NCBI GenBank assembly: GCA_003345555.1
Contig: PRDJ01000042.1
Location: forward strand, 44,678 to 76,677
DNA from: Candidatus Thorarchaeota archaeon
GTDB taxonomy: Archaea; Asgardarchaeota; Thorarchaeia; Thorarchaeales; Thorarchaeaceae
DNA length: 32,000 nucleotides
Reading direction: 5' to 3'
The notes beneath the pieces were generated by a model that had not been told where the DNA came from, ran no database searches, and saw only the letters and a program-made list of their open reading frames with translations. Numbering within the stretch: position 1 is the first letter of the stretch; each line of letters starts with the position of its first letter. Of this stretch, positions 1 to 31,930 are shown in pieces. The position numbers and the translations under genes are program-made.

Positions 1-447
1 TTCAGGCATATGCTCGAAGTTCTGAGCCGCGTTGACAGTCCTGACGGTTTCGAGACTGCCAAGGCTCAGATTCGTGAGGTCGTCAATCAAGTCATCGACA
101 GGCTGGAAGGTAGGGGTGAACCTTATACTCCCGACGATGTAGCCTTCAGAGTACAGATTACCAAGCCGCTTGAGCAATATGGGAAGACGAAACCACAACA
201 TGTGCGCGCTGCTCTCATGATGAGGAATGCGGGTTATGATGTCCCTGCAGGGACCATAGTGAGTTACATCAAGACAAAGGGCGAGGACGGAGTACTGCCG
301 GTCGAGCTTGCTCAAGGAACGAGCTACTGGTTGGACAAGGACAAGTACATTGAGACACTGCACTCTGTGTTCGAACAGGTACTTGATTCCGTAGGGCTTG
401 AGTTTGAAGAGCTCATGGGTTTCACAACGCTTGATCAGTTCTTCTAG
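1..447 (+). CDS. polB: Family B DNA polymerase (PolB1-like), C-terminal part; 5' truncated by the window edge
   Basis: Frame is open from position 1. Thumb-region motifs PQHVRAA, GVLPVELA and KYIETLHSVFEQVL resemble crenarchaeal PolB1 C-termini. It ends in a PIP-box-like TTLDQFF. Confidence 0.88.
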   Translation, partial: FRHMLEVLSRVDSPDGFETAKAQIREVVNQVIDRLEGRGEPYTPDDVAFRVQITKPLEQYGKTKPQHVRAALMMRNAGYDVPAGTIVSYIKTKGEDGVLPVELAQGTSYWLDKDKYIETLHSVFEQVLDSVGLEFEELMGFTTLDQFF

Positions 448-688
448 GTGTCCGCAGAGGGAAGTTGGCATCCTCAATAACCTAGAGTCAGTATTGTCGG
501 TGATAATGATGATTTGCCGCGCGCGTCTTGATTCAGACATTGACGAGAATGGCCTTCTGTATGTGTCTGAGCCTTCTGCCAAAACCGATTGGCGCATGAA
601 GTCCGACCAAGAAACTCTTAATATGTCCGACAGGTCAAGAGCCAATGGACAGACATCAGTCAGACCACAAATGATGGGGCCGCATTAG

Positions 689-9043: not shown

Positions 9044-9781
9044 ATGGACGAACCACTGCAATCCGCGCTCTACGCATCAATCGCTACACTGGACCAGCTC
9101 AAGAAAATGTACGACATGGGCGTTGTTGATGTCAGGTCGTATGAAAGGGAGTCTGAAGCGCTAATAACAGAGGTTCGGAATTGCATCGAACAGATGCGGA
9201 GAACCGGTCTTGACGTTGGGAACTTCGTGGGTCAGGCCCGGATATCGGAGTCGTTTCCCGAAGCGTCGAACATGCTGGGGCTGTACGGACGAGACACGCG
9301 GCAGCCAGGTATAGGGATGACAACTGATCAGTACTTCGACTACATCGGACTTGCCGTCTTAGATGTGGCTACCGCGAATTCCTCGAAAGGGCTGATGGGA
9401 CTTGCGGAACTCATTGTCGAGGTCGTGCGCCTGCTGCCAGAGCTCAAGTCTGTCAGCTACAATGACGTGATCGAGGCAGTGAACCGCGTGTCTCAACATG
9501 GATTGATACCGGGCATTCGGACGCTTAGGGGCGGAGTCAAAGTTGTGGAACTGCGTCCGTTAGAGCTGCGTCGTGACCAAGCAGATGTAATCAATGCTGC
9601 CGCCACCAAGGGGTACGTTTCCATTGAAGAGCTCATGATGCAGCTCAAGTGGTCAGAGGACCATGCACGTCAAGTTCTCTCCAGTCTGGTCGATGCTGGC
9701 ATGGCAGTGGCAGACATACGGTTCTCGACGGGTGGCCGCTATTACTTCCCGGGTTTAAGACCTAGAGATAGTACAGTGTAG
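9044..9781 (+). CDS. ESCRT-I/II hybrid: Vps28-like N-terminal domain fused to the Vps22/36 (EAP30) tandem winged-helix region
   Basis: The N-terminus LYASIATLDQLKKMYDMGVVDVRSYERESEALI...NF...RI...FPEA parallels the Vps28 N-domain. The C-terminus YFDYIGLAVLDV..GLMGLAEL..VSYNDVIEAV..ELRRDQADVI..GYVSIEEL...LKWSEDHARQVL...GMAVAD...YYFPGL parallels SNF8/Vps22. Confidence 0.85.
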   Translation: MDEPLQSALYASIATLDQLKKMYDMGVVDVRSYERESEALITEVRNCIEQMRRTGLDVGNFVGQARISESFPEASNMLGLYGRDTRQPGIGMTTDQYFDYIGLAVLDVATANSSKGLMGLAELIVEVVRLLPELKSVSYNDVIEAVNRVSQHGLIPGIRTLRGGVKVVELRPLELRRDQADVINAAATKGYVSIEELMMQLKWSEDHARQVLSSLVDAGMAVADIRFSTGGRYYFPGLRPRDSTV

Positions 9782-9829: not shown

Positions 9830-10543
9830 TCAGACCACTGCTAGTATTGCGCCTTTCTTCGAGTCAACCCATTTTGCCAATCCTTTGTCAACCATTATCT
9901 GCATGATTCGATGCAAGTCTCTTTCAGGGAGCTTCGAGAAGTCTTGGCCGGATTCCTGCACGACAATTGACTGCACATCTAGGCGCAGTTTTCCTGTCTT
10001 TATTGCCCAACGGTATATGATGTCACCCCATTCCTCGAGGGGTCGCCAGTAGACTCGAAGCTGTCTTTTCTTCTCGTCGAGCCATTCTCCAACGTCCTTC
10101 TTGACCAATGATTCACCTATGAATCTGAAGGCGTCGACCTTTCCAAGGATGTCACTGAACGGTTTCTCCTTCACGAAGGTTGACACTGAAAGAACATGTA
10201 TGCTTTTGAACTCGGTCCAAATCATAAGATAGTCTGACCACTCTTCCGCCCACATTTCTATGTCTTTTTCTGCAGGTGGAATATGATACATCCATTCAGC
10301 TTGGTTTACGTTTCCCCACTGCGGGGCCGGGAGCTCTAGGACCTGTGAGGGCGCAGACTCAGGGACGATTTCAGTCTGAATCGACTCGAGCTCCTGAGTC
10401 TGCGAATCCTCTTCAGCTTCAGTTTCGGTAACATCGACAAGAGTGTCGGTCTTAGGTGTCTCTTTGCCAACAGAAGCATCAGACGTTGGTTTGGGGGTTG
10501 GCTTCTGTCGCTCCTTTTCTTTCCGGCGTTCCTTCACTTCCAA
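9830..10543 (-). CDS. vps25: ESCRT-II subunit Vps25 with a charged, disordered N-terminal extension
   Basis: WAEEWSDYLMIW, GEWLDEKKRQLRVYWRPLEEWGDIIYRWAIKTG and FSKLPERDLHRIMQIMVDKGLAKW match the Vps25 winged helices. The TTG start is 3 nt after the vps4 stop. Confidence 0.86.
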   Translation of the reverse strand: MEVKERRKEKERQKPTPKPTSDASVGKETPKTDTLVDVTETEAEEDSQTQELESIQTEIVPESAPSQVLELPAPQWGNVNQAEWMYHIPPAEKDIEMWAEEWSDYLMIWTEFKSIHVLSVSTFVKEKPFSDILGKVDAFRFIGESLVKKDVGEWLDEKKRQLRVYWRPLEEWGDIIYRWAIKTGKLRLDVQSIVVQESGQDFSKLPERDLHRIMQIMVDKGLAKWVDSKKGAILAVV

Positions 10544-10546
10544 TCC

Positions 10547-11776
10547 CTAAGACGCCTCCCCCCATTCGATATACTTCCTTACGTCTTCTGGAGTTGTACC
10601 GGGTCCAATGTTCTCAATAGCCCGCAGAAAGTCGTCCCGTGAGACGGGCCGTAGTTCGAGTCGTGCGCGGTCGCTATCGAGCTTTCCCACGCGCTGTAGG
10701 TCTCTTATTGGTTCCATCGCGGCTTCCCGACATACCACACTAATATCCCGGCCACTATAACCGTCGGTCAAATCAGCAAGTTCTCCGAAGTCGACTTCCG
10801 GGGACAGTTCAATGTCTTCCATGTGAATCTCGAATATCTTTCTCCGTGAGGTTTTCCTTGGCAAGGGGATGTGAATCTTCTTCTCAAATCTTGATCGAAG
10901 AGCGAAGTCCAGTTCCCATGGAAGATTGGTAGCACCGATTACAGTAACCCTATCATCGGGATGAGTCGCCAATCCCTGCAGCTCAGTCAATAGCTGAGTC
11001 TTGAGTCGTCTCTCCCCGCCAACATCATGTCCCGTTCTTGAGATTCCAACAGAATCAAGCTCATCCATGAAGATAACGGAGGGCTGACTCCTCCTCGCCA
11101 TTTCAAAGAGGGTCATGACGAGCTTCTCTGACTCGCCGAGCCACTTGCTGACGATATTTGCGGCTGAGACATTGAAGAACGTTGCATGCACTTCAGAGGC
11201 CACAGCCTTTGCTATGAGAGTCTTACCACATCCTGATGGTCCATAGAACAGAATGCCCTTCCAGGGCTGCCTCGATTTTCCCTTGAAGAGTTCAGGATGT
11301 TTCATTGGAGACACAATGGCTTCTTGAATTACCTGCTTTGCATCGTCCAATCCTGCAACCTCGGACATTTTCAAATCCGGTCGTTCAGTAAGAATCGTGT
11401 CAGCAATCATATCCTGAAGGTGTCTCATGTCTTCGTTGTCGTCGCCTGTTTCCGAAGTCCTTCCGGATGGCAGTGATGGCTCTCCCCTGTCTATAGAAAA
11501 TGTGGCGGGAATACTTGGAATCGTCGGTCGTTCCGCTTGCCTTGTCTTAAGGCCTGAGATGTATCTTACCCGATCTACACACTCTTGGGCCCTGCTCAGG
11601 TAGTGCTTCTGCAAAGATGGAAGGGATGAGGAATTCGAGAGCTTGATGAGTATCATGCTTGCCTTTAGATAGTCACTACAAGCCTCTTTCTGGAGTCCTC
11701 TCCTGTCCAAATCTATTGCCTTTTCGAGCAAAGCCTTGACTCCAAGGTCGAGGCGGTCAGCGTCTGTTCCTGACAT
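10547..11776 (-). CDS. vps4: Vps4-type AAA+ ATPase with an N-terminal MIT domain
   Basis: MIT (LEKAIDLD...Y..A), Walker A GPSGCGKT, pore loop KWLGESEK, Walker B IFMDELD and GATNLPWELD. It lacks the eukaryotic beta-domain insertion and sits in an ESCRT locus. Confidence 0.93.
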   Translation of the reverse strand: MSGTDADRLDLGVKALLEKAIDLDRRGLQKEACSDYLKASMILIKLSNSSSLPSLQKHYLSRAQECVDRVRYISGLKTRQAERPTIPSIPATFSIDRGEPSLPSGRTSETGDDNEDMRHLQDMIADTILTERPDLKMSEVAGLDDAKQVIQEAIVSPMKHPELFKGKSRQPWKGILFYGPSGCGKTLIAKAVASEVHATFFNVSAANIVSKWLGESEKLVMTLFEMARRSQPSVIFMDELDSVGISRTGHDVGGERRLKTQLLTELQGLATHPDDRVTVIGATNLPWELDFALRSRFEKKIHIPLPRKTSRRKIFEIHMEDIELSPEVDFGELADLTDGYSGRDISVVCREAAMEPIRDLQRVGKLDSDRARLELRPVSRDDFLRAIENIGPGTTPEDVRKYIEWGEAS

Positions 11777-11965
11777 TCAAGGTCGCCAGTCAAGTGCGCT
11801 TGAATGGTTAAGAGTTTCTGTGTTTCGTAGCGCGATACTCCTTCAGTTGTCCTGCCCGCCAGAAAGGCACGTTTGTTACGAAGGCTTAAAGGCGGAGGTC
11901 TCGCACAACCCACAGAAGTTCATCATCAGGACATGGTGAGGTCGTTGGGTACATTCAGGAAGGCT

Positions 11966-12559
11966 ATGACTTGGGGTCGCAAGAAGCCGGACGTTGCAGA
12001 GGTAACCAGTCAGCTTAGAATCCTAGGCAAAGAGCTCGAGCGAGAGAGAAACAGGCTCGAGAAGGAAGAGACTGAGACCAAGGCTCGAGCGGTGCGGGCT
12101 CGGAAAGAGGGCCATGTCGACGCCTACAAGACCTACGCAGTAGAGATGATCCGGTTCAGGAAGTATGCTTTGTCTGTCGACAAATCGCGGCTTCACCTAC
12201 TGAGGGTACTCGGCCATATCGTTCATGCTCAGTCGGCCGCTAAGACGAGCTTGGCAGTAGAAAAGGTCGCCAAGATTCTCGGGATACTAGGTGATGCAAA
12301 AGACCCAACAAAGGTTGTTCGGAGTCTTGATGAGATTACTCGAAGACTGGACGCAATGGAAATCGAAAGCGGGATTTCTGACGAAGCCTTTGACTCTATG
12401 AAAGACAGCAAGGTGACGTCAGAAGAGCTGGCCGCAGCACTGCAGGAGATTGATGCCGAGGCTGGGGCTGCAAAGGTCGTCTCGCGGGCCGGTCCAGCTA
12501 CAGAGGCTGAGAAACTCGAAGAAGAGATCAAGTTGCTAGAGAAGGAACTTGGTGTCTAG
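11966..12559 (+). CDS. ESCRT-III (Snf7 family), Vps2/24/46 class
   Basis: Basic N-terminus, AYKTYAVEMIRFRK and the LDAMEIESGISDEAFD pattern of the CHMP1-3 class, plus an amphipathic C-terminal helix. Start moved to ATG 11966 after an SD-like AGGAAGG. Confidence 0.88.
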   Translation: MTWGRKKPDVAEVTSQLRILGKELERERNRLEKEETETKARAVRARKEGHVDAYKTYAVEMIRFRKYALSVDKSRLHLLRVLGHIVHAQSAAKTSLAVEKVAKILGILGDAKDPTKVVRSLDEITRRLDAMEIESGISDEAFDSMKDSKVTSEELAAALQEIDAEAGAAKVVSRAGPATEAEKLEEEIKLLEKELGV

Positions 12560-12560
12560 A

Positions 12561-14201
12561 CTAGCGCCCAAAGACCTGACGATTCCCAGAAGCCGTTTCT
12601 AGTCTTTTTCTCGTTTCAAATGAATCTCGCATGAGTCCCTTGTATCTCCTGATGAAATCCTCTGGGACCAGCTGACCGTTCCTCAATAGACGAACCGTTT
12701 CTCTAGCGGCATCCTCAATCGTTATCGCGTCTCTTCTGAGTCCCATTGTTTCTGCAGAGTCGGGAACCGGAGAAGGCATGCCACCTGCACCGAACAAGCC
12801 GCCGAGGTCTCGGCCGAGTCTGTCGTGATACTGCAAAGGAGCTGTGCGGGCTCCGTTGTCAGATGCGTTTCCGAATGGATAGTACGAAGCCGATCGCCGG
12901 TCGTATGGTCCGTATCCAGCAGATGCTTGTGTCCCGATGTCAGCTTTTCCACCTGAACACATGAGCGAGTAGGCGAGTTCTTCTACCTTGAGCCTGACAT
13001 CGCTAATGCTCACGTCGGTCTGTCCGAGCTTTCTCGTTCGCTGAAGGTCTGACTGCATATACTTGTCGAATTTTCTGGCGATTTCTACATAATCTGGCAG
13101 AACACTCTCTGTCTGATCGCTGCAAGTTATCTTGATATCGCCCTGCTTCATTCTCAGGACTGTTCTCTTTCTCAGCCTGCCATCCTCTTCTAAACCCTTC
13201 ATGTAAGCAAGGGGTATATCGAAGACTATGTCGGTTTTCTTTCGGAGTCTTCCGGTTTCAGCAATAAAGACGAGCCTCTTGTTGGTTATGTACAAGGTGC
13301 CAGTGGCCTTGTCATTCTTCACGAAGTCACTGCCTGCGATTCTGATGTCGGGTAACGCACAGACTGGCAGTTCGTTTACAGACAGTTCTGCAGTCTCATA
13401 GAACCCCGCGAATTGCTTCCTATAGTAGTCCAGTCCGTCCAGCTGCTGTTCGATATCTACTAATGTCAGCCTCGCCTCTTCGATTGCGTCATCAATATTC
13501 TTCCGGTATTGACCCACAAGATGGGTGACACGATTCGTTACTCCGCCTACAAAGGGGAACTGATCGGCAGACCATGCGCTGGAATCGAGGAGCCCCTTGG
13601 TCTCAGCAGCCATTTGCCTCGAGACTATCTCCGCTTGGCTTGTCACTCTGTTCTTGATGGCAGGGATCTCCATCTCGATGTTCTCAATCTTCTCTTCCAG
13701 CCAGCGATAGTGAAGGAAATTCGCCATCCTGAGAGAAACAAGAAGCCTCTTGGCTGACATCAGCTGGTTGGTGAAATCGCGCAGGCGTGTGTATCCATAG
13801 TGGAGTGTGATTATGGCATGACGCAGGTCTTGAGCCAGCACCTTTCTTTTGTCCTCTACAGACACCGTGTGTGTGGAATGGCACCTGGGACAGATTTCTT
13901 CGATTCGCTTCCCAGCACTCAGCTCTCGAGAGCCGCATTCCGGGCATTTCTCGAACTTCTGCCCTGGGGCGGGAGTGCCAAGGCCGTGGTGGCAATTACT
14001 GCATACAATGTGCTCGCTTGACTTGGTCTCAAGGCATTCCAAGCACAATACCTCTCCGCAATCCTCACAAAGATGCGTGGCTCTATTGCTCTTGCAGACT
14101 TTACAGAGCTGGGTAGAGGATTCGTTACTCAACTGGGTGCCTCCGAACATCTGGGCTTGCATATTGTACTGAGGAGTCATGGATAATTGGCTATGTATCA
14201 C
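12561..14201 (-). CDS. Multidomain ESCRT-I-like protein: B-box/Zn ribbons, coiled coil, PH-like (GRAM/GLUE) domain, low-complexity linker, Vps23/37 steadiness-box hairpin
   Basis: Six CxxC pairs at the N-terminus, a heptad-rich middle, GTLYITNKRLVF, and C-terminal IEDAARETVRLLRNGQLVPEDFIRRYKGLMRDSFETR. The true start may be one of the downstream Met codons. Confidence 0.75.
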   Translation of the reverse strand: MIHSQLSMTPQYNMQAQMFGGTQLSNESSTQLCKVCKSNRATHLCEDCGEVLCLECLETKSSEHIVCSNCHHGLGTPAPGQKFEKCPECGSRELSAGKRIEEICPRCHSTHTVSVEDKRKVLAQDLRHAIITLHYGYTRLRDFTNQLMSAKRLLVSLRMANFLHYRWLEEKIENIEMEIPAIKNRVTSQAEIVSRQMAAETKGLLDSSAWSADQFPFVGGVTNRVTHLVGQYRKNIDDAIEEARLTLVDIEQQLDGLDYYRKQFAGFYETAELSVNELPVCALPDIRIAGSDFVKNDKATGTLYITNKRLVFIAETGRLRKKTDIVFDIPLAYMKGLEEDGRLRKRTVLRMKQGDIKITCSDQTESVLPDYVEIARKFDKYMQSDLQRTRKLGQTDVSISDVRLKVEELAYSLMCSGGKADIGTQASAGYGPYDRRSASYYPFGNASDNGARTAPLQYHDRLGRDLGGLFGAGGMPSPVPDSAETMGLRRDAITIEDAARETVRLLRNGQLVPEDFIRRYKGLMRDSFETRKRLETASGNRQVFGR

Positions 14202-30397: not shown

Positions 30398-30456
30398 GGC
30401 TTTCTATCAGCCAGTTCCCCCAATAAAGCAACCCCGAACTTGCTCTTGCACCTGCT

Positions 30457-30486
30457 AGGGACGTTCCAAGCAGCTGAACGGTCCCT
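30457..30486. promoter_or_regulatory. Inverted repeat upstream of a putative selB promoter
   Basis: AGGGACGTTC-CAAGCAGCT-GAAC(G)GTCCCT (10 bp, one bulge). A TTTTAA box at about 30497-30502 lies about 25 nt before ATG 30524, consistent with a leaderless transcript. Confidence 0.33.
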
Positions 30487-30523
30487 CGGTGAAGGTTTTA
30501 ACGCGCTGAGGTTGGAGCATACA

Positions 30524-31930
30524 ATGAGCCTGAGAATGGAAAGCCTTGTCCCGATTCACGTTGGTCTGGTTGGTCACATTGACCATGGCAAGACGCAGCT
30601 AGCAAGGGCCCTCAGCCAGAAGGTGTCCACTGCCGGACTTGACAAGCATCCACAATCTCGGGAACGGGGTATAACCATAGATTTGGGCTTCACTATGTTT
30701 GTGCTCGGTAAGTATCTCGTGACGCTTGTGGACTCGCCGGGTCATGCAGACCTTTTCCGCAGTGTAGTTGCTGGGGCCGGGATTATCGATGCCGCCTTAG
30801 TAGCTGTTGCAGCCGACGAGGGTCCCAAGGTGCAGACCGGGGAGCACCTCTTGTTGCTTGAGTCAATGGGCGTTGATACGATTATAGTGGTAATCACGAA
30901 AACGGACATAGCCGACGAGAACCAGCAGACTCTGGTAGAGGACCGCATGAAGTCGATTGTAGGCGGAATGTCCTTTACAAAAACCGAGTTCGTCAGGGTC
31001 TCTGCACTTACCGGTCGCGGTATCGACACGCTTCGTGATGTAATGCTGCGCACGATTGTTCCGAAGGTGAGACAGAAAGAAGGATCTTTCCTTATGCCAA
31101 TCGATCACGCCTTTTCAGTGAAAGGCCATGGCACTGTTGTCACCGGCACGATCTTGAGGGGTCAACTCCAGACGGACGATATCCTTGAGCTATTACCTCA
31201 GGGCATGAAGGGGAAAGTCAGGTCGATCCAGACCTTCAGTGAGCCGCGGAGTCGAGCGAGCGCGGGCGACAGAGTCGGAATCAATCTCCCAGACCTATCC
31301 GACCGAGTAGTCAGCCGAGGTGACTACGTCTGCGAGCCTGGATCACTCAAGACGACCACTGGTCTCATTCTGGCGTTTCGAGCTAATCCACTATATCGTG
31401 GCCGTCTGGTCAAGAGAATGATTGTCAGTGCAACTGTGGGTATGCCCACTGTCACGGCCGAAATCATGCCATTTGAAATAGAGAACGGTGAGAAAGTAAT
31501 AGTCGACGAGGCTGATAGCAACGAATCGAACATTGCACTGCTACTCCAGAAGGAGATTGCCGCCGAGGTTGGCATGAGGGTGGTTCTGATGCGGACTGAT
31601 CTGTCTCCCACCCAAATGCGCATTGTCGGCTCTGGCCAAGTAGTCGAAATGCCCGGCAGCATCATCCTGAACAAGAGGAAACAGCGCTCTGGCAGGGTGT
31701 CTCGTGTCAGACAGAATGATGTTTTAGTGGAGGGTCTTGCTTCGACAAAAGAGCGCGCCGAGTCTATGGCCGGACTATCAGTAAGGACCGTAACTGGGCG
31801 TAAGGGCCAGCTCGGAGAACCTTTCGGCACCCGCGGAGTTATCACGGCTGTGTTCGACGGCCCTGTGGCCAATACTGAGAAGATCATCTACGAGAGACTC
31901 GTTGAGGAGGAGTATCACTTTGGACATTGA
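30524..31930 (+). CDS. selB: Selenocysteine-specific translation elongation factor SelB/eEFSec
   Basis: GHIDHGKT, RGITIDLGF, DSPGHA, AADEGPKVQTGEH, IDHAFSVKGHGTVVTGT, and an archaeal/eukaryotic-type domain IV (GQLGEPFGTRG). Start moved to ATG 30524 (or 30536). Confidence 0.93.
   Translation: MSLRMESLVPIHVGLVGHIDHGKTQLARALSQKVSTAGLDKHPQSRERGITIDLGFTMFVLGKYLVTLVDSPGHADLFRSVVAGAGIIDAALVAVAADEGPKVQTGEHLLLLESMGVDTIIVVITKTDIADENQQTLVEDRMKSIVGGMSFTKTEFVRVSALTGRGIDTLRDVMLRTIVPKVRQKEGSFLMPIDHAFSVKGHGTVVTGTILRGQLQTDDILELLPQGMKGKVRSIQTFSEPRSRASAGDRVGINLPDLSDRVVSRGDYVCEPGSLKTTTGLILAFRANPLYRGRLVKRMIVSATVGMPTVTAEIMPFEIENGEKVIVDEADSNESNIALLLQKEIAAEVGMRVVLMRTDLSPTQMRIVGSGQVVEMPGSIILNKRKQRSGRVSRVRQNDVLVEGLASTKERAESMAGLSVRTVTGRKGQLGEPFGTRGVITAVFDGPVANTEKIIYERLVEEEYHFGH

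Follow-up and report, generated by a model that had tools for sequence, protein, structure and literature searches.

Which function is carried by a protein that joins a cysteine-rich N-terminus, a long helical region, a PH-type domain and a C-terminal helical hairpin, and whose gene lies beside ESCRT genes in an archaeal genome? This question is raised by an open reading frame (ORF) within a 32,000-nucleotide stretch of DNA from Candidatus Thorarchaeota archaeon (GCA_003345555.1, contig PRDJ01000042.1, positions 44,678 to 76,677), here called the window. An initial annotation, made from the sequence alone, had described the product as a TRIM-like B-box/coiled-coil protein with a GRAM/GLUE-like PH domain and an ESCRT-I steadiness box, and had read it as a membrane adaptor. 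The motifs and domain features quoted there are far beyond chance, and an ESCRT-I-like membrane adaptor is indeed the best reading in view of the PH fold, the steadiness box, the ESCRT gene cluster and the failure to find ubiquitin or UEV. We conclude that the gene is very probably the Thorarchaeal orthologue of Znr_CC_PH_SB (cog.011556) and that its product has such an adaptor role.

The ORF comprises 546 codons plus stop, translates without internal stops and is confirmed as a genuine gene (Table 1). Its protein probably measures 523 aa, since orthologues begin with M/L-T-E-D-S at the position of residue 24 of the window protein, where a TTG codon is preceded by a GGAGG motif. The complete protein was modelled by AlphaFold2 with a mean pLDDT of 77. 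On its own, it yielded only sub-threshold Pfam matches (GRAM, E 0.057; zinc ribbons), and therefore family-wide Pfam scans were needed.

Table 1. Features of the candidate adaptor gene and of the neighbouring ESCRT genes, in window positions.
Feature	Position	Strand	Basis and remarks
Znr_CC_PH_SB protein, maximal ORF	12561..14201	-	Probable true CDS 12561-14132 (523 aa), judged from orthologue starts opposite residue 24
Probable true start TTG (14130-14132) with Shine-Dalgarno-like GGAGG (14140-14144), 7 nt upstream	14130..14144	-	Sequence; orthologue starts
Zinc module, residues 33-107; six CxxC pairs, 12 invariant Cys	13881..14105	-	Orthologue alignment, Pfam and model
Helical stalk ("coiled coil"), residues 115-264, three long helices	13410..13859	-	AlphaFold2 model
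PH-fold domain, GRAM/GLUE type, residues 266-382	13056..13406	-	Structure comparison and Pfam
Two short helices (386-418), then disordered Gly/Pro/Tyr-rich linker (419-482)	12756..13046	-	pLDDT and alignment
Steadiness box, Vps23-core-type helical hairpin, residues 483-543	12573..12755	-	hhalign and profile searches
Snf7/ESCRT-III	11873-12559	+	Pfam; convergent with the adaptor gene, one base between the ORFs
Vps4	10547-11776	-	Pfam
Vps25	9830-10543	-	Pfam
Vps22/EAP30-type ESCRT-II subunit; N-terminal ~65 residues (9044-9238) Vps28-like hairpin	9044..9781	+	Pfam and PDB matches

The family to which we assign the gene has been described as Znr_CC_PH_SB or Znr_PH_CC_SB, asCOG cog.011556, and a place within ESCRT-I was proposed for it (Makarova et al. 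2024, mBio, PMC10936438); cog.011556 is also listed as 'Steadiness/Vps23 box' in bioRxiv 10.1101/2023.07.25.550441. In the published proteins, three zinc modules are followed by a coiled coil, a PH domain and a steadiness box (PMC10936438); the window protein agrees with them in all four modules and in their order, and phylum and ESCRT linkage are shared as well. Nothing essential differs, apart from a length of about 520 aa for Thorarchaeal members as compared to 650-900 aa elsewhere, which results from a shorter linker. The listing in PMC10936438 includes the 650-aa protein As_004-p_01543 of Lokiarchaeum GC14_75. When aligned with a 649-aa Lokiarchaeal protein (P0164), the window protein gave a BLASTP E value of 7e-29 over the zinc, coiled-coil and PH regions, with all cysteines aligned. 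P0164 is encoded near L35Ae (upstream) and Snf7 (downstream), and by its length and this context it resembles the listed GC14_75 member. A survey of the distribution across Asgard genomes, as suggested in the initial annotation, detected family members in 292 of 400 genomes, including 82 of the 85 from the window's own taxonomic family. Nearly all Thorarchaeota carry the gene, mostly in a single copy, and the family is common in Asgard families outside this group. The architecture and its ESCRT-I interpretation are thus already published, and the novelty that the initial annotation had implied has to be withdrawn, the family having appeared in print as Znr_CC_PH_SB in 2024.

The presence of a steadiness box was borne out by transitive profile comparisons. 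AlphaFold2 places a hairpin of two helices (residues 483-507 and 513-543; pLDDT 95) at the C-terminus, with IEDAARETVRLLRNGQLVPEDFIRRYKGLMRDSF at residues 493-526. In Thorarchaeota this element is more divergent: the Thorarchaeal hairpin profile alone remained sub-threshold against yeast Vps23 (E 0.01-0.07), comparison with a single Lokiarchaeal C-terminus was not significant (hhalign probability 0.7%), and a Vps23_core search of the window's genome gave no match, the control genomes having no power to give a positive either. The same Thorarchaeal profile matched a 38-sequence profile of non-Thorarchaeal orthologue C-termini with an hhalign probability of 94.3% (E 1e-7). This orthologue profile in turn detected the yeast Vps23 core (E 4.3e-7, 5.8e-7 and 4.6e-6) and TSG101 (E 2.7e-4), its matches comprising 2P22_A, 2F66_A, 2CAZ_A and 6VME_B. 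Pfam scans agree, as Vps23_core matched 17 of 38 family members (best E 4e-7) and exceeded the cut-off of 26.8 bits in genomes G126, G127 and G123 (29.6, 29.5 and 27.3 bits, respectively), where the matching ORF also matches the Zn-CC-PH profile. The C-terminal hairpin is, as recognised through the family profile, a Vps23-type steadiness box. One protein, P0227, had been considered as a free-standing steadiness-box protein; it was rejected as a truncated family member starting inside the PH domain, and no match to it was found in the window's genome. A 175-aa Thorarchaeal ORF in genome G321 (L105) showed a weak Vps23_core match.

The middle domain, which carries GTLYITNKRLVF at residues 301-312, adopts a PH fold in the model, in line with the annotation. 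It is built from seven strands forming a beta sandwich (residues 279-359) and a capping helix (362-381), and its closest structures are of the GRAM and GLUE types: the GRAM-PH domain of MTMR2 (1lw3; Z 12.9, rmsd 2.9 Å over 107 residues), Lam6 (5yqr; Z 12.0) and the GLUE domain of EAP45 (2hth_B; Z 11.6). Foldseek returned GLUE and GRAM matches with a probability of 1.00 (target-length normalised TM scores of 0.62 for 2hth_B and 0.64 for 2dx5_A). The GLUE domains of Vps36/EAP45 and the GRAM domains of MTMR2 and Lam6/GRAMD share this PH fold with the window domain at 16-18% identity, but the GRAM/GLUE subtype is a soft assignment, since classical PH domains score within about 2 Z units. The domain was identified by fold comparison only, its sequence profile retrieving nothing useful from the PDB sequences. 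Across the family, Pfam gave weak matches to bPH_3 (22 of 33 members), GRAM (12 of 33) and Vps36_ESCRT-II. Basic patches are conserved (K298, R309, R320, K322, R342, R344, K345, R346). DH-PH RhoGEFs, which topped the Foldseek search with the whole model, were discarded: at an rmsd of about 20 Å they reflect an artefact of a long helix followed by a PH domain and not homology.

Between the zinc module and the PH domain, the stretch of about 150 aa annotated as coiled coil is modelled as three long helices within a single chain (residues 115-159, 166-201 and 212-264; pLDDT about 90), and orthologues show almost no variation in the turn that links the first two of them (SLRMANFLHY.W, residues 156-167). 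The Gly/Pro/Tyr-rich stretch is likewise present (residues 419-480); it is disordered in the model, with pLDDT values below 50 over residues 418-458 and 466-479, and poorly conserved except for one short helix (457-468) with the consensus FRDxLER.

All cysteine motifs quoted for the N-terminus exist in the protein, namely C33-x2-C36-x8-C45-x2-C48-x4-C53-x2-C56-x7-H64 and the further pairs CSNC (67-70), CPEC (86-89) and CPRC (104-107). In 25 orthologues, whose identity to the zinc region of the window protein is 37-73%, none of the 12 cysteines varies, and judged from the alignment they would be enough for three Cys4 zinc sites; in Pfam scans, DZR matched 23 of 33 family members. The annotated B-box-like motif holds for its cysteine spacing but not for its terminal histidine: H64 varies among orthologues, and the conserved fourth ligand pair would consequently be C67/C70. 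The zinc region extends over residues 30-114 in the AlphaFold2 model (pLDDT of the zinc-module model 87.5), in which residues 60-101 resemble a zinc ribbon.

These cysteines gave rise to two readings that leave ESCRT aside. A TRIM-like B-box/coiled-coil scaffold of the E3 or antiviral type, unrelated to ESCRT, would account for the C-x2-C-x8-C-x2-C-x4-C-x2-C spacing, which equals the first six ligand positions in the B-boxes of TRIM proteins and ANCHR (ZFYVE19), as well as for the long helical region that follows the zinc module here as in TRIM. It also draws on zf-B_box matches in 17 of 33 members at E up to 1 (best E 7.9e-6), on ANCHR-like_BBOX matches in 9 of 33, with P0134 attaining 26.6 bits at a cut-off of 27, and on B-box, RING and ZZ folds among the structural matches. 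However, almost all B-box scores lie below cut-off, the window protein itself has no B-box match at E up to 1, and the signature does not reach beyond the third CxxC pair (in residue-by-residue scans, 2-31 of the 42 profile positions), leaving the last two B-box ligand positions unmatched. Zinc ribbons lead the fold searches (Z 5.6, rmsd 1.4 Å over 42 residues) and B-box, RING and ZZ folds follow at Z 3.6-4.9, so that the fold evidence for a B-box is inconclusive (Z < 5); all Z values for this region are below 6 and hence within noise for small domains. SPRY/PRY is absent, and so is a RING domain, the protein starting about 9 residues ahead of the first cysteine. The modelled helices form three segments in one chain instead of a TRIM-type antiparallel dimer, the ubiquitin system was not found in the window's genome, and TRIM proteins offer nothing comparable to the steadiness box or the ESCRT context. 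The likeness to TRIM proposed in the annotation is therefore mere analogy, and we consider this reading, already disfavoured, very improbable. The least probable reading of all, likewise disfavoured, is a zinc-ribbon protein that binds nucleic acids or is related to transposases. It could invoke weak Pfam matches to Zn_Tnp_IS91 (E 0.015), zf-FPG_IleRS and Zn_Ribbon_TF, and the MCM zinc ribbon (Foldseek E 0.03) and ribosomal zinc ribbons as best folds, although the zinc-module fold search gave no match at E ≤ 0.001. Some JGI records even name orthologues 'transposase-like protein', a name we reject in the absence of a transposase catalytic domain. The Pfam matches are limited to the CxxC knuckles, the gene shows synteny and vertical conservation, with one copy in nearly all genomes, and the PH domain and the steadiness box would be left unexplained.

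A more serious competitor, though still an unlikely one, is a CdvA-like cell-division adaptor that labels the site of division and brings in ESCRT-III for cytokinesis rather than acting as an ESCRT-I-type sorting factor in vesicle budding. The hairpin does resemble that of CdvA (Pfam CdvA E 2e-4 for the C-terminus of P0125, and E 0.014 in a further case), a similarity to the steadiness box also pointed out by Makarova et al. (PMC10936438). Moreover, Snf7 and Vps4 adjoin the gene, whose near-universal, mostly single-copy occurrence would suit a core cell-cycle gene. Yet CdvA matches only 3 of 38 members as compared to 17 for Vps23_core, the PDB profile matches are Vps23 and TSG101, a PRC barrel and an E3B-like wH-binding tail are absent, and the predicted contact is with ESCRT-II and not with the winged helix of CdvB. 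This alternative differs from the ESCRT-I-like adaptor in the cellular process only, the molecular mechanism being the same.

The ESCRT-I-like adaptor reading gains from the surroundings of the gene, which adjoins a Vps22(SB)-Vps25-Vps4-Snf7 cluster with the same gene order in nearly all of 75 Thorarchaeota species/loci. As synteny across Thorarchaeota spans the whole region, including TldD/PmbA and AspRS, adjacency is weak evidence of a functional linkage in this group; at the Lokiarchaeal locus the family gene is only loosely linked to Snf7. The neighbouring Vps22 matches EAP30 (E 5e-13) and, at residues 7-64, VPS28 (E 0.0026) in Pfam, and the four best PDB matches of its N-terminus are all the yeast Vps28 N-terminus (E about 0.1). 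For the SMTZ1-45 orthologue of Vps22, a 99% HHpred match to Vps28 is given in PMC10936438. A weak VPS28 match was also seen for a 186-aa ORF in the window's genome (L077). Modelling the steadiness box in complex with the Vps28-like hairpin of Vps22 yielded a score of 0.70, a level that 58 of 80 solved complexes attained, as did 2 of 110 mismatched pairs, while the best of three controls scored 0.03. At least 85% of contacts recur between runs, the partner has a pLDDT of at least 77, and the modelled interface involves the conserved residues F516, R507, G509, E514, Y520 and R525 of the steadiness box and A11, S12, A14, T15 and L40 of Vps22. This score may merely echo Vps23-Vps28 headpieces whose solved structures (2F66, 2P22) the model had learned, in which case it would indicate likeness rather than binding. 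In yeast two-hybrid assays, a steadiness-box protein from Lokiarchaeota has been reported to contact Vps22 (Hatano et al. 2022). We cautiously lean towards docking of the steadiness box on the neighbouring Vps22.

Compared to its eukaryotic relatives, the protein shares with Vps23/TSG101 the C-terminal steadiness-box hairpin and, as we liken it, the role of an upstream adaptor next to ESCRT-II, ESCRT-III and Vps4. In contrast to Vps23/TSG101, it lacks the UEV domain and the PTAP-type linker, its N-terminus being a Cys-rich zinc module, and whereas the stalk of Vps23 runs straight into the headpiece, here the PH domain and the disordered linker stand between stalk and hairpin. Unlike in ESCRT-I, the Vps28-like hairpin is fused to Vps22 and not to a Vps28 C-terminal domain, and neither Vps37 nor Mvb12 was identified. 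Yeast Vps36 combines a PH domain with zinc fingers as well, but the zinc modules of the window protein lie N-terminal to the PH domain and are not inserted in it, they are of the Cys4 ribbon/B-box-like and not the NZF type, and winged-helix domains are absent. Concerning ubiquitin, the annotation had seen no ubiquitin genes in the window, and the search of the whole, 93%-complete genome agrees: neither ubiquitin (PF00240) nor UEV (PF05743; searched in the window protein as well) was matched, but the genome-search controls could not give a positive, and the absence hence rests partly on literature. According to the latter, Thorarchaeota are devoid of ubiquitin; it has been reported in Loki-, Hel-, Odin- and Heimdallarchaeota (PMC9192718). 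The suggestion of the annotation that the zinc fingers stand in for UEV and might read ubiquitin stays conjectural.

Taken together, the data suggest the following scenario. The basic GRAM/GLUE-type PH domain would put the protein on acidic membrane surfaces, and the N-terminal three-zinc module would bind a putative target, cargo or site marker; lipid binding and a zinc-module ligand are both what we purely infer. The helical stalk may act as a spacer or oligomerisation element, and the Vps23-type steadiness box on its flexible linker would dock on the Vps28-like hairpin of Vps22, a predicted contact that would link adaptor and ESCRT-II (Vps22/Vps25) directly. ESCRT-II would then recruit ESCRT-III (Snf7) and Vps4, leading to membrane scission, and in the window's genome this pathway would operate with neither ubiquitin nor a UEV domain. 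A tentative and rather doubtful extension is that in Thorarchaeota ESCRT-I and ESCRT-II have collapsed into a two-protein, ubiquitin-independent scaffold, in which the steadiness box on the Vps22-fused Vps28-type hairpin replaces the eukaryotic link of Vps28 C-terminal domain and Vps36 GLUE domain, and the B-box-like/zinc-ribbon module selects cargo or site in place of ubiquitin recognition by UEV.

The present analysis does not introduce a new kind of system; it adds the predicted contact between the steadiness box and the Vps22 hairpin, the phylum-wide count and the corrected start codon. The two-protein scaffold, if true, would make for a simpler ESCRT-I/II junction. Asgard ESCRT proteins are informative on the origin of eukaryotic membrane trafficking, and Znr_CC_PH_SB is the one widespread Asgard ESCRT-I candidate without UEV. 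Because this family is devoid of UEV and Thorarchaeota are devoid of ubiquitin, they offer a natural test of whether ESCRT recruitment is older than its coupling to ubiquitin.

The minus-strand ORF at 12561-14201 encodes 546 residues, and all motifs from which the initial annotation had read a TRIM-like B-box/coiled-coil protein with a GRAM/GLUE-like PH domain and an ESCRT-I steadiness box were recovered in its translation where they had been placed. The N-termini of orthologues align to residue 24, at which the window carries a TTG codon (14130-14132) with GGAGG seven bases upstream, and therefore the real adaptor product probably comprises 523 amino acids. Modeling with AlphaFold2 on 33 orthologues (mean pLDDT 77) provided the domain anatomy listed in the table. 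Apart from the PH core and the ligand Cys residues, conservation peaks in the turn between helices 1 and 2 of the stalk. The variable, disordered linker contains a short conserved helix with the consensus FRDxLER, a possible short linear motif recognised by a partner (Vps4 MIT, for example), but its spacing departs from the MIM1 consensus.

Segments of the adaptor protein (AlphaFold2 model) and features of the surrounding window
Feature	Residues	Window position (strand)	Remark
Zinc region	30-114		beta-rich
Three long helices (stalk)	115-159, 166-201, 212-264		
SLRMANFLHY.W turn	156-167	13701-13736 (-)	
Seven-stranded sandwich + capping helix	279-359 + 362-381		
Two short helices	up to 418		
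Gly/Pro/Tyr-rich linker	419-480		disordered
FRDxLER helix	457-468	12798-12833 (-)	
Helical hairpin	483-507 / 513-543		confident
Vps22/EAP30		9044-9781 (+)	weak VPS28 match at N-terminus
Vps22 N-terminal hairpin		9044-9238 (+)	begins ELYASIATLDQLKKMYD
Vps25		9830-10543 (-)	ESCRT-II domain matched by Pfam from residue 98
Vps4		10547-11776	
Snf7		11873-12559	convergent with adaptor gene; one base separates the two ORFs
TldD, PmbA			other side of adaptor gene from Snf7
TldD, listed GTG start		14241 (+)	
TldD, first internal Met		~14325	begins MKTLAQAAIEAAL
Longin-like protein, 277 aa		20483-21316 (+)	Fuz_longin_1, E 1.8e-4
SelB/eEFSec-like GTPase		30440-31930 (+)	GTP_EFTU + aSelB_III

Used by itself, the profile of the Thorarchaeota hairpin gave weak matches to yeast Vps23 core chains (E 0.01-0.07). 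A HMMER search for the family in 1.8 billion representatives returned 121 clusters, many of 600-900 amino acids, and a profile named A6 was built from the last 75 residues of 38 members from outside the Thorarchaeota. A6 aligned with the Thorarchaeota hairpin in hhalign (probability 94.3%, E 1e-7) and matched both the yeast Vps23 core (E 4.3e-7, 5.8e-7 and 4.6e-6) and TSG101 (E 2.7e-4). Pfam Vps23_core was detected in 17 of these 38 members (best E 4e-7). Moreover, in three Asgard genomes an ORF matching the Zn-CC-PH profile also scored 29.6, 29.5 and 27.3 bits for Vps23_core, exceeding the curated Pfam cut-off of 26.8 bits. At the sequence level, the wider family settles the identity of the hairpin as a Vps23-type steadiness box, with A6 providing the link to yeast Vps23 and TSG101.

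The middle domain adopts a PH fold of the GRAM/GLUE kind, as had been proposed. VIA-align placed MTMR2 (Z 12.9, rmsd 2.9 A over 107 residues), Lam6 (Z 12.0) and the EAP45 GLUE domain (Z 11.6) on top, their identities to the model being 16-18% as compared to 6-10% for classical PH domains. Foldseek likewise retrieved the GLUE domains of human and mouse EAP45 (Vps36) with TM scores of 0.62-0.64, normalised by target length, and the GRAM-PH domain of MTMR2 (rmsd 3.3 A), while Pfam assigned bPH_3 in 22/33 and GRAM in 12/33 orthologues. DH-PH proteins heading the Foldseek list superimpose with an rmsd of ~20 A and reflect nothing more than helices followed by a PH domain.

Among 25 orthologues with complete N-termini, whose zinc regions are 37-73% identical to that of the window protein, the twelve Cys of six CxxC pairs (C33/36, C45/48, C53/56, C67/70, C86/89, C104/107) are invariant, whereas H64, previously counted as a ligand, varies. 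It is safe to state that the module holds three Cys4 sites. That its first part is B-box-like is plausible: Pfam zf-B_box matched in 17 of the 33 orthologues (best E 7.9e-6), and ANCHR-like_BBOX reached 26.6 bits in one distant member as compared to a cut-off of 27. In those scans that were displayed at residue resolution, the B-box matches span the first three CxxC pairs only. When residues 28-118 were modeled separately (pLDDT 87.5), Foldseek gave no significant match, the best being MCM zinc ribbons (E 0.03). In VIA-align a zinc ribbon ranked first (Z 5.6, rmsd 1.4 A over 42 residues, protein residues 60-101), followed by RING, U-box, ZZ and B-box folds (Z 3.6-4.9), all these Z values lying in the range that the tool flags as possibly just a common arrangement. 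The term TRIM-like should be taken only as an analogy, since a RING is lacking and the model shows the helices as three segments of a single chain.

An Asgard family with zinc modules, coiled coil, PH domain and steadiness box, like the window protein, is known as Znr_CC_PH_SB (also Znr_PH_CC_SB; asCOG cog.011556; Makarova et al. 2024, PMC10936438). These authors define it by three zinc ribbons, a coiled coil, a PH domain and a steadiness box, report it from several Asgard lineages but not from eukaryotes, regard it as probably ancestral and as 'a likely ESCRT-I component', and expect its PH domain to bind the membrane. Their Table S2 lists a 650-aa member of Lokiarchaeum GC14_75 flanked by L35Ae and Vps20. 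Our HMMER search retrieved a 649-aa Lokiarchaeal protein encoded just downstream of L35Ae, with one gene between, and upstream of Snf7; the window protein matches it over Zn, CC and PH regions (BLASTP E 7e-29) with every Cys conserved. Therefore, the domain reading and the overall inference of the initial annotation, largely correct apart from the comparison with TRIM proteins and the conjecture that the zinc fingers read ubiquitin, correspond to a description already published, and the finding is not new. A 2023 preprint (bioRxiv 10.1101/2023.07.25.550441) calls cog.011556 the 'Steadiness/Vps23 box' family and describes Loki- and Thorarchaeia as devoid of UEV-Vps23, and ubiquitin is seemingly missing from Thorarchaeota (Hatano et al. 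2022). Searches of the window's own 93%-complete genome gave no match to ubiquitin, UEV or Vps23_core, the control genomes being unable to give positives.

The adaptor profile matched in 292 of 400 Asgard genomes, including 82/85 of the window's own family and 127/135 of another large family, while some other families were devoid of matches (0/31 and 0/22). The gene order PmbA-TldD-[adaptor]-Snf7-Vps4-Vps25-Vps22-AspRS is preserved, with few exceptions, among 75 species loci of Thorarchaeota. Synteny alone is weak evidence of functional linkage because the housekeeping flanks are conserved to an equal degree. The listed TldD start is probably too early; we consider the first internal Met the more likely start, in which case TldD and the adaptor gene would diverge from a common intergenic region of ~190 bp. 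Vps25 carries an N-terminal extension of ~95 residues, Lys/Glu-rich and then acidic, before its ESCRT-II domain; some Asgard Vps25 N-terminal subdomains are steadiness-box-like (PMC10936438). Judging by its weak longin-domain match, the 277-aa protein is a putative further eukaryote-signature-type protein near the ESCRT cluster. The SelB/eEFSec-like GTPase additionally matches the Tsr1/BMS1 C-terminal domain.

The N-terminus of Vps22 is a Vps28-type steadiness-box hairpin, nearly invariant in 31 Thorarchaeota orthologues. The four best PDB matches of its profile were all the yeast Vps28 N-terminus in ESCRT-I core crystals (E ~0.1), and such a hairpin has been reported for KXH75178.1, with a published HHpred probability of 99% for the SMTZ1-45 orthologue (PMC10936438). 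The ESCRT-I core crystals 2F66, 2P22 and 2CAZ also hold the Vps23 hairpin matched by the adaptor C-terminus. Complex prediction with Vps22 residues 1-95 and the steadiness box, each provided as alignment, scored 0.70, a mark reached by 58/80 solved complexes and 2/110 mismatched pairs; the highest score among three controls was 0.03. At least 85% of contacts agreed between runs, pLDDT of the partner was at least 77, and the predicted interface has conserved residues on either side. According to a warning of the tool, memory of an already solved complex may produce a pass of this kind, and the pass therefore demonstrates likeness rather than binding. The Vps22 hairpin is the predicted docking site of the adaptor steadiness box. 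Elsewhere in the same genome (contig C67, L077:1477-2037, minus strand), a 186-aa ORF has a C-terminal helical segment, GRIDKAEYERELEELIKRG, with a weak VPS28 N-terminal match (E 0.08), which may point to a further hairpin of the steadiness-box type or may have arisen by chance.

The analysis shows the domain identities of the adaptor, its membership of the family, its distribution and its genomic context, and a complex model supports the docking. We infer that the PH domain would keep the adaptor at the membrane while the zinc module binds a target. The flexible linker would let the steadiness box dock on Vps22, as the model suggests, and docking would feed ESCRT-II, ESCRT-III and Vps4 in turn without ubiquitin, in a process that may be sorting/budding or division.
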